A stretch of 64,000 nucleotides of DNA from assembly GCA_964625575.1 (NCBI GenBank), contig CAZVBQ010000017.1, positions 7,628 to 71,627 on the forward strand, written 5' to 3'. Below are positions 48,036 through 50,039 of this stretch, one piece after another. The stretch is from an uncultured Ignavibacteriaceae bacterium. GTDB lineage: Bacteria; Bacteroidota; Ignavibacteria; Ignavibacteriales; Ignavibacteriaceae. Position numbers and translations under genes: made by a program. Within the stretch, counting starts at the first letter, position 1. Each line of letters starts with the position of its first letter. A model generated the notes under the pieces. That model did no database searches and was not told the origin of the DNA. It saw only the letters and a list, made by a program, of their open reading frames with translations.

Positions 48036-50039
48036 TCATAAATTATTCTTAACCCAGTTTTCGAGGCCACCGGCGACGATGAGCTCCTGGGCTGCTTCTC
48101 CAACGGCACCGAAGGAGTAGCTCTTTCCTTCCATCACAGCGGTTGAGGTGCTGAAATCAACTTTCAGTTTCAAGCCCGGTTTAACGGATGGTTTTTCTGA
48201 GCCGAATCTTGCCTTCAGATCGTTCACCAATTCGGGTACTTCGATCGTGAGGAAGCCGTTGTTGATGGCGTTTCTCTTGTAAGTTTCGCTGAATGAACCG
48301 GCGATCAGTAGCGATATGCCGCGATACTTGAGCGCTGTTGCAGCCTGCTCACGCGAGCTACCGGTACCAAAGTTGAATCCGCCGATCATAATGTCGCCGT
48401 TCTCCGCGAGTTTCTGGAACTCGGGATCATAGTTTTCCATAGCCACGGCCGCCTGACCCTCGGGGGTAATGTCATCCTGATAAGTGTACTTACCGGGATA
48501 GATACCGTCGGTGTTCAGGTTGTCCTGATGACAGAAAATTATATCACCTTCAATTCCCGCCGGGAATCCATCGATGATCTTCACCGCGACAACGTCTTTC
48601 GCCTTAGGCGAAGAAGGGTGAAGGGTGAAGGGTGAAGGGTGATCCGCCTGCGGCGGACTGAAGGCTGAAGGCTGAAGACCAGCGTAATCAATATAACCGG
48701 AGATGGCGGATTGAGCCACAACGGCGGGGGAAGCAAGATACGCGAACGAATCGGGTGAGCCCATTCTCCCTTTGAAGTTGCGGTTGGTGGCTGAGATGCC
48801 TGTTTCACCGGCTTCGAGGAGTCCGGTACCGAGTCCGATACATGGCCCGCAACCCGGTGGCAACGGTGTGGCACCGGCATCCATCAGGATCTGCCAGTCA
48901 CCCCGTTTTTCGGCTTCAGCCTGCACTTCACTCGAAGCGGCGGCTACATAAAAACCGACACCTTCGGCGATCTTCTTGCCTTTAAGAACGGCTGCAGCCT
49001 CGGCGATATCTTCGACGCGACTGTTAACGCACGAAACAAGATAAGCCTTGTTTATCTTGATCTTCTTTTCCTTCACTTCGGAAACCTTGTTCCACACCTT
49101 CACTGTGTTCGGACCCGAAATACACGGCTCAACTGCTGCCAGATCGATCTCGATCACCTTTGTGTAGTAAGCATCTTCGTCGGCTTTAAGGTTTGGGATG
49201 TCTGCCTGAAGCGCGGCAATGGTTGCATCGTTGATCCTCGGATGAACACCGTTAACGGCATCTGCATCTGAGTTAACGCCCTGGAGCCCACGTTTCTGGA
49301 TGAATTCAGCGCGCTTCTTCAGCCAGTCGATAGTAACATCATCAACCGGGAAGAGGCCAACAAGGGCACCCCACTCAGTGGTCATGTTAGCTACTGAAAG
49401 GCGCTGATCGATCGTAAGATCTTTAACGCCTTCACCGGTGAATTCCACGGCGTGGTTAAGCACTTCATCTTTTGAGAAAAAGCCACACAGGGTGATTATC
49501 AGATCTTTACCCGTAACTCCCGGTTTGAAGTTGCCTTTGAGTACAACTTTTGCAACCGGTGGTATCTGCCACCACGTTTTACCGGTTACCCAAATGGCGG
49601 CAGCATCGGTTCTAACAACGGGGGTTCCAAGGCAGCCCATTCCACCGTACATGTTGGAGTGACTGTCTGATGCAACCGCGAGCGCGCCGGGGAAAGCATA
49701 ACCTTCCTCGATCATGATCTGATGCCCGATACCTCTTCCCGCGGGGTAGAAATCAGCTCCCATCGAGCGGGAGAATTCTTCGATCTTGCGGTATTTTTCG
49801 AGGTTTTTCTCTGTAGTATCCTGAATGTTGTGGTCGAGGGTGTGTACTACCTGCCTTGGATTGGCAAGTTTCTTGGCGCCGGTCTCTTTAAATTTCGGAA
49901 TTACCGCGCCTGTATTGTCGTGGGTCATTACATGCTTCGGGTGGATCATAACATAATCACCCGACTGCACCTTGTATCCTTCAGCGTATCCGGATGAATA
50001 ACGCTGAACGATCTTTTCAACCAGATTTTGAGCCATCAC
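48036..50039 (-). CDS. Aconitase-family hydro-lyase with fused large (LeuC-like) and small/swivel (LeuD-like) domains, homoaconitase-like
   Basis: 667 aa. N-terminus QNLVEKIVQRY..., ASDSHSNMYGGMGCLG, and a Cys ligand region LVSCVNSR...PGCGPCIGLG. C-terminal LeuD-like GGFNFGTGSSREQAA. A low-complexity linker is encoded by a repeat element. Confidence 0.8.
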   Translation of the reverse strand: MMAQNLVEKIVQRYSSGYAEGYKVQSGDYVMIHPKHVMTHDNTGAVIPKFKETGAKKLANPRQVVHTLDHNIQDTTEKNLEKYRKIEEFSRSMGADFYPAGRGIGHQIMIEEGYAFPGALAVASDSHSNMYGGMGCLGTPVVRTDAAAIWVTGKTWWQIPPVAKVVLKGNFKPGVTGKDLIITLCGFFSKDEVLNHAVEFTGEGVKDLTIDQRLSVANMTTEWGALVGLFPVDDVTIDWLKKRAEFIQKRGLQGVNSDADAVNGVHPRINDATIAALQADIPNLKADEDAYYTKVIEIDLAAVEPCISGPNTVKVWNKVSEVKEKKIKINKAYLVSCVNSRVEDIAEAAAVLKGKKIAEGVGFYVAAASSEVQAEAEKRGDWQILMDAGATPLPPGCGPCIGLGTGLLEAGETGISATNRNFKGRMGSPDSFAYLASPAVVAQSAISGYIDYAGLQPSAFSPPQADHPSPFTLHPSSPKAKDVVAVKIIDGFPAGIEGDIIFCHQDNLNTDGIYPGKYTYQDDITPEGQAAVAMENYDPEFQKLAENGDIMIGGFNFGTGSSREQAATALKYRGISLLIAGSFSETYKRNAINNGFLTIEVPELVNDLKARFGSEKPSVKPGLKLKVDFSTSTAVMEGKSYSFGAVGEAAQELIVAGGLENWVKNNL
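48609..48680. repeat. GTGAAGG-heptamer / TCCGCCTGCGGCGGA palindrome / CTGAAGG-heptamer element lying in-frame in the aconitase-family gene
   Basis: CGAAGAAGGGTGAAGGGTGAAGGGTGAAGGGTGA-TCCGCCTGCGGCGGA-CTGAAGGCTGAAGGCTGAAGACC. It encodes GLQPSAFSPPQADHPSPFTLHPSSPK on the minus strand. Confidence 0.65.

Follow-up and report, generated by a model that had tools for sequence, protein, structure and literature searches.

In a 64,000-nt stretch of DNA from an uncultured Ignavibacteriaceae bacterium (the window; WIN is the label for its own genome), positions 48609-48680 carry an element of heptamers, a palindrome and again heptamers, which lies in frame within the gene for a 667-aa fused enzyme of the homoaconitase type. 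We consider it likely that this segment is one copy from a family of tiny repeats found genome-wide, which has colonised a permissive interdomain hinge, where it is translated through and tolerated without demonstrated benefit. As we picture it, the family would consist of tandem 7-8-nt words, often broken by a 14-15-nt GC-rich hairpin that is bracketed by the 4-nt repeat TCAN, and the hinge that it would have colonised, and in which it would be read through, lies between domain 3 and the swivel domain of the enzyme.

A repeat element within the gene of a fused homoaconitase

Read on the + strand, the tract comprises, in order, GAAGAAGG, three copies of GTGAAGG, GTGA, TCCGCCTGCGGCGGA, two copies of CTGAAGG, CTGAAG and ACC, TCCGCCTGCGGCGGA being a perfect 15-nt palindrome. 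Its 72 nt amount to 24 codons, which specify residues 454-477 (GLQPSAFSPPQADHPSPFTLHPSS) of an intact 667-aa open reading frame (ORF). Tandem Repeats Finder (TRF) recovered the two arrays at 48613-48642 (period 7, 4.3 copies, 100% match) and 48658-48677 (period 7, 2.9 copies, 100% match). This agrees with an earlier note on this DNA, made from the letters alone, which had described the heptamer-palindrome-heptamer element inside the gene and its preserved reading frame. The repeats are more frequent in the window than chance would allow: allowing up to two mismatches, the double heptamer occurs seven times (0.56 expected) and the 15-nt palindrome three times (0.07 expected). Arrays of at least three tandem 7-nt copies are dispersed through this one genome, TRF returning 44 rows for the 64 kb, 17 of them with a period of 7.

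On the coding (-) strand, the linker reads in TCA phase as TCAGCCT TCAGCCT TCAG, the hairpin, and then four copies of TCACCCT. The array on the N-terminal side (48658..48680, - strand; coding GGT CT TCAGCCT TCAGCCT TCAG, or CTGAAGG x2.9 on the + strand) encodes G454-S461, and its word TCAGCCT/TCAGCCC is also found in the linkers of four relatives, L003, L008, L009 and L115. The 15-nt hairpin that follows, TCCGCC-GCA-GGCGGA on the coding strand (48643..48657, - strand), stands between TCAG and TCAC, is translated as S-PPQAD and, folded alone as RNA, reaches -11 kcal/mol (z = -3.4). The array on the C-terminal side (48609..48642, - strand), four copies of TCACCCT followed by TCTTCG (GTGAAGG x4.3 on the + strand), encodes H467-S477. 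A long foldback RNA was considered for the linker copy and rejected: the 91-nt region has a z of -1.7, and the 15-nt hairpin alone stands out. When all three frames of both strands were checked, the coding (TCA) strand of the element proved to contain no stops in any of them, and the + (TGA) strand is closed in every frame, because three successive heptamers set TGA into each frame in turn; the earlier note had read the two orientations in the same way.

The host gene (48036..50039, - strand) was recognised from its ORF and from Pfam and NCBIfam matches as a fused LeuC/LeuD-type gene of the aconitase family. Pfam finds Aconitase (25-448) and Aconitase_C (486-603) in one chain, and the protein scores 861 bits against the NCBIfam model TIGR00139 (homoaconitase), whose curated equivalog cut-off is 529.9; by sequence it is a member of the homoaconitase / fused LeuC-LeuD aconitase family (TIGR00139). 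The relatives are annotated as homoaconitases of Ignavibacteria, Ignavibacteriales or Melioribacteraceae, and the Fe-S ligand motifs of the host protein are invariant across the alignment. The alignment to the stand-alone HacA large subunit of solved structure (4kp2_A) runs as far as residue 450 and stops there five residues short of that chain's own C-terminus, and small-subunit models start aligning around residue 501. Together with the Pfam domain borders, these limits place the tract in the tether between the LeuC-like and LeuD-like parts, which is where the earlier note had put it.

The ancestral linker and its partial replacement

Orthologues were drawn from three sources, namely a protein database, a set with one genome for each species, and metagenomes; a metagenome scan for close strains, in which almost all relatives among the matches listed were at 58-70% identity, was also used for this survey of linker length. 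As a measure we took the distance between the invariant motifs YLASP and NTDGI, which was resolvable in 144 orthologues. It is 62 aa in 114 of them, 63 aa in 18 and 61 aa in four, and the 136 orthologues at 61-63 aa have a non-repetitive, recognisably conserved linker (...KIDYDW.....KI.G.IK.N.KK...). The remaining eight are longer than 63 aa, and all eight contain repeats or a palindrome. In the window protein the distance is 70 aa as against 62 aa, a net gain of 8 aa.

These comparisons show that the linker was originally free of repeats and constant in length. A linker of ~26 aa predates the element, and the repeat tract overwrote its N-terminal part with a net gain of 8 aa. The idea in the earlier note that the element itself supplied the interdomain linker is contradicted by this older linker. 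Its suggestion that the segment is specific to one lineage held: a similar linker in distant taxa was not found among the orthologues surveyed.

Four of the eight longer linkers belong to the window's own clade (65-67 aa). Palindromic inserts of +7 to +13 aa are seen in the linkers of L159, L173 and L169/L207, which come from other Ignavibacteriaceae at ~68% identity to the window protein. In L169 and L207 the insert is a palindrome with an 11-bp stem, AGACCTGCCTG-accgg-CAGGCAGGTCT (+7 aa); in L159 it is TCAGCC-gaa-GGCTGA, read as AQPKAD, with the architecture and frame of the window's hairpin; and L173 has a related insert. The interdomain hinge has taken up small palindromes several separate times.

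Word arrays in close relatives

At the DNA level we compared ten relatives from the window's clade, whose nucleotide identity to the window is 72-84%. Word arrays built from differing units are found in the linkers of L001, L003-L009, L115 and L117, and L002 is the single close relative whose linker has none. The arrays differ in kind: L001 has four copies of the 8-mer GAGTCACG, then TTCAAAC-like units; L005 and L006 have eight and four copies, respectively, of AGTCACAG; L003, L008 and L009 have ATGAAGG, then TCAGCCC x3, then TCAAACT-like units; L004 and L007 have (GGTATGAAGTATGAT) x2, then TCAAACT x4; and L115 has TCAGGCC, TCAGCCT, TCATCCC, TCAGCCC and TCATACT x4.

On a gene tree built without the linker, these array types are polyphyletic. 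L008 is 98% identical to L004 except in a patch of ~95 nt that lies exactly over the arrays and is 98% identical to L009; this L009-type patch in an L004-like gene shows that linker alleles are swapped between lineages by short recombination tracts. More broadly, the L008 gene is a mosaic with two short L009-like patches, at alignment columns ~120-240 and ~1290-1420, a pattern that indicates, at the level of sequence, frequent short-tract recombination among the L004, L008 and L009 lineages of Ignavibacteria.

All 13 alleles (WIN, L001-L009, L115, L117 and the strain of metagenome X2) are in frame. Words that bear TGA on the coding strand amount to just two units in L003, and in L004 and L007 they form a 15-nt super-unit that holds TGA out of frame. 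Such limits in L003, L004 and L007 are what selection to keep the frame open would be expected to leave behind. In the window's family-level clade, word arrays of various kinds have thus replaced the N-terminal part of the linker, and we infer that translation filters the copies that survive: long arrays would last only in the stop-free TCA orientation, and coding-strand words with TGA would be kept at two units or re-periodised to 15 nt. A heptamer shifts the frame by +1, and the gain or loss of one or two words could mend the frameshift caused by an insertion. The enzyme would then tolerate the resulting tract as a surface tether.

The hairpin as a late addition

Among the genomes sampled, the palindrome is present at the linker site in the window's species alone. 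The relative closest to it in array structure is Chlorobiota bacterium AMX-MBFR-49 (L115), at 92% amino-acid and 83.6% nucleotide identity. Its linker holds an unbroken TCA-phased heptamer array, which ends ...GCCTAAG like that of the window and is without the hairpin. Since L115 carries such an array without the hairpin, the hairpin appears to be a late addition to an older array. The window array is 12 nt longer than that of L115, which fits the sum of +15 nt (hairpin), +4 nt (TCAN) and -7 nt (one word). Moreover, the tract is not the product of one insertion, because arrays stand at this site in all close relatives but one and are older than the hairpin. The repeat insertion proposed in the earlier note therefore survives in part: the segment is repeat-derived and in frame, but it did not arrive as a single insertion.

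A comparable pair of filled and empty sites is found in the citD-citE fusion gene (45191..46495, - strand), the next gene but one of the operon. An in-frame foldback word array (46317..46381, - strand; AGTAGCG AGAAGCG AGTGGCG AGTGGTG AG-AATT-CTCACTA...) lies inside its CitD/ACP-like domain, where the conserved motifs SDCWIEI and KSKVG enclose it. In L001 and the window, the internal array is AGTAGCG AGAAGCG AGTAGCG AGTAGTG, without a hairpin; in L115 it is AGTAGCG AGAAGCG A (TCCGCCTTCGGCGGA) GGG AGTAGTG, with the hairpin in frame as SAFGG. The filled form (L115) again differs from the empty form (L001/WIN) by a net +12 nt. Two cases are too few to make +12 nt a rule.

Sister copies in the window and the source sample

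The repeat-derived nature of the segment, as claimed in the earlier note, is borne out by two intergenic sister copies in the window that have the hairpin and words in common with it. The copy at 56503..56517 (- strand), in the spacer after a gene for a type IX secretion system (T9SS) cargo protein, reads TTCACCCTTCAC / TCCGCCACAGGCGGA / TCACACC, with the word TCACCCT and a hairpin that has one loop mismatch. The copy at 59985..59999 (+ strand), after the stop codon of marR, reads TCATACTTCAT / TCCGCCGCAGGCGGA / TCATACTTCAT; its hairpin is identical and is flanked by perfect 11-nt direct repeats. Two variant hairpins were also found, TCCGCC-GC-GGCGGA (29877..29890, + strand), which sits in an ATCGCTC/ATCACTC heptamer array with TCAT on both sides, and CTCGCC-GC-GGCGAG (56606..56619, + strand), with TCACAGTTCAC on both sides.

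In all five hairpin copies of the window the hairpin is bracketed by TCAN...TCAN, and because TCAN stands on both sides, the hairpin breaks the heptamer phase by +4/-3 nt. The same phase break is seen in array-embedded copies of other phyla (e.g. L017, L030 and L089). We had considered that the flanking direct repeat might be a mere continuation of the tract; this is ruled out by the break in five of the five window copies. A rule for the orientation of intergenic copies relative to the upstream gene was also rejected, both orientations being found. In L003 and L004, the orthologous spacers after marR and after the T9SS-cargo gene contain neither arrays nor the hairpin. Words are shared between genes as well: the 8-mer AGTCACRG occurs in the homoaconitase linker (L001, L005, L006) and also where citD begins (L003, L004, L006, L007). 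In the window, a word array (46454..46486, - strand) forms the N-terminus (MSSESRVASGE) of the citD-citE gene, and it is there that the relatives have AGTCACRG 8-mer arrays.

X1, the metagenome that best holds the window, contains at least five other contigs of similar depth with 35-51-nt copies at 2-4 mismatches, and word depth, when summed over the GTGAAGG array, reaches ~50x that of the flanks. The read-support check that the earlier note had called for gave contigs from three separate metagenomes that hold the element in the gene. A 3601-nt contig from X2 (a 2025 wastewater run) spans 48300-48970 with eight substitutions and no gap; in X3 (a 2021 activated-sludge run) contigs cover both element junctions; and in X1 contigs break and overlap inside the repeat (records 1 and 4, 48618-48639). 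Gene copies that differ in length were not found among the contigs from four runs.

The hairpin in other loci and phyla

One genome per species was scanned for the pattern TCAN-TCCGCC-N3-GGCGGA-TCA. This revealed at least 104 stretches, where our own estimate of chance gives ~17; 108 matches were tabulated, 106 of them with full flanks. The phyla and groups represented among the matches listed are Ignavibacteria, a Bacteroidia metagenome-assembled genome (MAG), Chthoniobacterales and other Verrucomicrobia, WOR-3, Desulfobacterales, Planctomycetes, and Clostridia/Eubacteriales, and many of these matches are embedded in heptamer tracts. The free fourth flank base is identical on both sides in 76 of the 106 (~26 expected), and at least seven of 11 flank bases match in 39 of the 106, as against 2 of 105 in a shifted control. 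In 770 kb of unselected Ignavibacteria loci the hairpin proved rare: we counted six TCCGCC-N3-GGCGGA copies, three of them from the window.

Several hairpin copies fall within long ORFs and have the TCA orientation there (L068, L014, L012, L029 and L026). They are in frame in a GH9-like protein (L068; ...SSFSPPAADQPSNF...), in a UbiD-like decarboxylase of a Verrucomicrobium (L014; ...LNPPQADQ...), in T9SS proteins (L012 and L029, both in the QSAxGGS frame) and in a long ORF (L026). Across genes, translation of the hairpin uses at least two frames, which give SPPxAD and SAxGGS.

A different arrangement was observed in the Eubacteriales/Clostridia MAGs L034, L074, L048, L084, L088 and L111, which have tandem 22-nt units made up of TCATCAT and a 15-nt hairpin. 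The stems of these units vary and yet stay complementary (e.g. TCGGCGcaaGCCGA, TCCGCCaacGGCGGA and TCACGCGcagCGTGA), so that in these arrays it appears to be the shape of the hairpin, rather than its sequence, that is maintained.

A more general proposal, which we put forward tentatively and regard as rather doubtful, is that TCCGCC-N3-GGCGGA and its stem variants, bracketed by TCAN, are an undescribed ultra-small mobile unit present across bacterial phyla. Such a unit would home into TCA heptamer tracts by a possibly host-encoded mechanism; word arrays would write new peptides into permissive loops and linkers of housekeeping enzymes, and slippage would serve as frame repair.

Predicted structure of the linker

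AlphaFold2 was run on a 22-sequence alignment and gave a mean predicted local distance difference test (pLDDT) of 74 and a predicted template modelling score (pTM) of 0.78. In the model, residues 449-470 are without secondary structure, and pLDDT falls below 50 at 456-468 (QPSAFSPPQADHPS), which corresponds to the left array plus the hairpin. FTLHP (471-475), encoded by the right-hand array, is predicted to form a short beta-strand, and in the alignment it falls opposite a conserved, strand-like ...GSIKVN... of the outgroups. The disordered linker expected by the earlier note was recovered for residues 449-470 and not for FTLHP. The model thus offers moderate evidence that the tract is partly a floppy loop and partly a replacement of an ancestral structural segment.

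Alternative explanations

Several points weigh against reading the segment as a tolerated copy of a colonising repeat. Because the right-hand array encodes a predicted strand that matches a conserved outgroup segment, part of the tract may be under constraint at the level of the protein rather than neutral. The AlphaFold2 model is itself shallow, with 22 sequences, and has other low-confidence loops too. A copying enzyme or transposase, Y1 included, was not found among the ten small ORFs of the window, and the metagenome scan yielded no hairpin-free allele of the window's own species among the matches listed. TCA flanks are missing from three of the six hairpins in the unselected 770 kb, so the TCAN rule is frequent rather than universal. 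TCAN may be either a target duplication or a part of the element. Finally, support for the alleles comes from assembled contigs, behind which heterogeneity in copy number may lie hidden.

A low-complexity linker made in place by replication slippage of the gene's own sequence, with a coincidental likeness to the intergenic repeats, would do without a dispersed or mobile element, and it has in its favour that the linker tolerates many sequences and that heptamers, by the summary of Mrazek 2007 in PMC4679880, are the commonest long simple-sequence repeats of bacteria and slip easily. We nevertheless give this explanation a slim chance: an identical or near-identical 15-nt hairpin with its flanking word recurs at two more loci in 64 kb, where 0.07 would be expected; other contigs of the same sample hold near-identical copies of 35-51 nt; AGTCACRG is common to homoaconitase linkers and citD starts; and the TCAN-flanked hairpin is found in at least 104 loci of many phyla, against the ~17 that we estimate for chance. 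Slippage would have a different consequence if the tract were a phase-variable contingency locus, in which the gain and loss of heptamers shift the frame and so switch the swivel domain on and off reversibly. A 7-nt unit is not a multiple of three, slippage by a single unit would truncate the protein, and the tract is perfectly homogeneous (100% match), as slippage-prone tracts are. However, 13 of 13 alleles are in frame, the arrays, at 3-4 units, are short, no gene copy of another length was seen in the contigs from four runs, and the host is a central metabolic enzyme encoded in an operon, neither a surface nor a restriction gene, which an out-of-frame switch would simply inactivate. Phase variation is accordingly very improbable.

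The tract might instead be of use, either as nucleic acid (a ribosome pause between the domains, or a binding site for an RNase or another protein) or as a Pro/Ser-rich flexible tether that has been exapted. The hairpin is stable (-11 kcal/mol, z = -3.4), the same families occur at stereotyped places, after stop codons and between the genes of operons, and AGTCACAG has been kept in L005 and L006 despite a flank divergence of ~25%, which may point to selection that acts on the word itself, or to some force that homogenises it. Against this, the words and the presence of the hairpin vary among sister lineages, with none in L002, so that no particular sequence is required; the 91-nt region, taken whole, shows no unusual degree of structure (z = -1.7); and the outgroups function with an anchor distance of 62 aa and no repeat. 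On balance we find such a function unlikely. An assembly artefact, in which a repeat-induced chimera or collapse put the element into the gene, is hardly credible: the X1 contigs, which were obtained from Logan, do break exactly at the element (overlap 48618-48639), as expected at a dispersed repeat, but the 3601-nt X2 contig, from another sample and year, crosses the whole element without a gap, X3 contigs cover both junctions, the frame is intact and relatives hold comparable tracts at the same codons.

We return, then, to colonisation by a small repeat. The element shows no sign of benefit, since the words of its sisters differ, L002 has none and the outgroups work without a repeat; by analogy with Rickettsia palindromic elements, the tract is probably best read as selfish or neutral DNA. 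No evidence was found for exaptation beyond tolerance. The earlier note had thought of exaptation as a flexible Pro/Ser-rich linker, and nothing indicates it, the richness in Pro and Ser being the automatic translation of TCA/CCT-rich words.

Comparison with known repeat systems

Neither this hairpin nor repeats of this kind in Ignavibacteria were found described in the literature searched. From its sequence and from analogy, the element would be a variant on known kinds of repeat, with the behaviour of Rickettsia palindromic elements (RPEs) and arrays of the heptamer type. Cyanobacterial STRR repeats are tandem heptamer repeats. In Nostocaceae, Elhai and colleagues reportedly described, in 2008, the small dispersed repeats (SDRs) SDR4-6, 21-27 nt long, as apparently mobile and hairpin-forming, and some SDRs are said to be nested in heptamer tracts or to lie at short palindromic sites. 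As a citing paper puts it (PMC5861425), SDRs were not found outside Nostocaceae; compared by description only, SDRs and the window element are both very small hairpin repeats, and they differ in phylum and sequence.

Going by the summary in PMC10969869, RPEs (Ogata et al. 2000, 2002) are ~100-150 bp long, form families that each have a conserved peptide, and are confined to Rickettsia. Both RPEs and the element described here are dispersed palindromic repeats that lie in frame in unrelated, functional housekeeping genes as well as in intergenic DNA; both are translated as an extra surface peptide, and neither has a known transposase. Here, however, a 15-nt core sits in a 72-nt tract of 7-8-nt word arrays and is read in at least two frames, the host is Ignavibacteria and the same stem occurs in many other phyla; no sequence relationship is to be expected. 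In size, peptide and host the element differs from RPEs (15-nt core, 72-nt tract, Ignavibacteria, differing frames); what it has in common with them, in-frame positions at surface-exposed sites of intact housekeeping genes, is a likeness of behaviour only and not membership.

Arrays of the heptamer TAACTGA are known from Beggiatoaceae, Cyanobacteria and Bacteroidetes (PMC4679880). Like the repeats described here, bacterial heptamer repeats are arrays of 7-nt words with a patchy phylogeny and a mostly intergenic position, with stops on one strand and a translatable other strand. The present repeats differ in having many words per genome, often as foldbacks broken by a specific hairpin, and in having occupied the same codons of orthologous genes repeatedly.

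REP/REPIN sequences (REP, repetitive extragenic palindromic) are mobilised by REP-associated tyrosine transposases (RAYTs) of the IS200/IS605-type Y1 kind; REPs are extragenic, 20-40 nt long, with a conserved 5' tetranucleotide (GTAG in E. coli) and a RAYT gene alongside (PMC3116915). Both they and the present element are short GC-rich hairpins with many dispersed copies, sometimes in arrays. Unlike REPs, which are species-specific, the element lacks GTAG, has TCAN flanks and copies inside genes, and has the same stem across phyla. No RAYT/Y1 transposase was found in the window (10 small ORFs). An enzyme that recognises hairpins in single-stranded DNA would be a plausible mover, and REP/RAYT and the cyanobacterial SDRs may be the nearest models for how the hairpin is copied. 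MITEs, short for miniature inverted-repeat transposable elements, measure 50-500 bp, with the terminal inverted repeats of a parent insertion sequence (IS) and a target-site duplication of fixed length, whereas the present unit is 15-19 nt and has no known parent IS.

In light of these comparisons, in-frame colonisation of essential enzymes by palindromic repeats would reach beyond Rickettsia, the group best known for it, to free-living Ignavibacteria, with elements about ten times smaller. Repeated independent hits on one hinge would chart, in nature, the places at which a protein can accommodate arbitrary sequence. The loci described here are also suited to asking how non-triplet tandem repeats persist in genes, how new disordered linkers arise, and which enzyme, if any, copies a 15-nt hairpin that is found in many phyla. 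In annotation work, care is needed not to take tracts of this kind for frameshifts, domain boundaries or conserved motifs.

Neighbouring features

A second palindrome, TTCGCCTTAGGCGAA (coding TTCGCC-TTA-GGCGAA; 48598..48612, - strand), adjoins the C-terminal-side array and is translated as SPKAK. Its RNA fold reaches -7.5 kcal/mol (z = -3.2), and the strain of the X2 run varies from the window at these positions; it may be a chance or derived feature.

The operon at 43648-51890 of the window is conserved in L002-L010 and comprises genes for an isocitrate/homoisocitrate-dehydrogenase-like protein (Iso_dh), an HD-domain protein, the fused homoaconitase-like enzyme, a PrpD/MmgE-family protein, a CitD-CitE fusion and CitF (citrate lyase). 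In Ignavibacterium album, a PDDEXK_3 gene sits between the aconitase-family and PrpD genes. In this operon context, homoaconitate is a candidate substrate of the fused enzyme. In L150, L171, L184 and L194, the tblastn match to the query continues for 350-790 nt beyond the gene, and additional ORFs follow directly downstream; these may represent an inserted small gene like the one in I. album.

A separate repeat family occupies spacers between operon genes, at 47874-48026, 50605-50761 and 2129-2340. It has arrays of the 9-mer NCCGCAAAG on one side and of the complement CTTTGCGGN on the other, around a core of ~100 nt, and is predicted to form long hairpins in the polycistronic mRNA.

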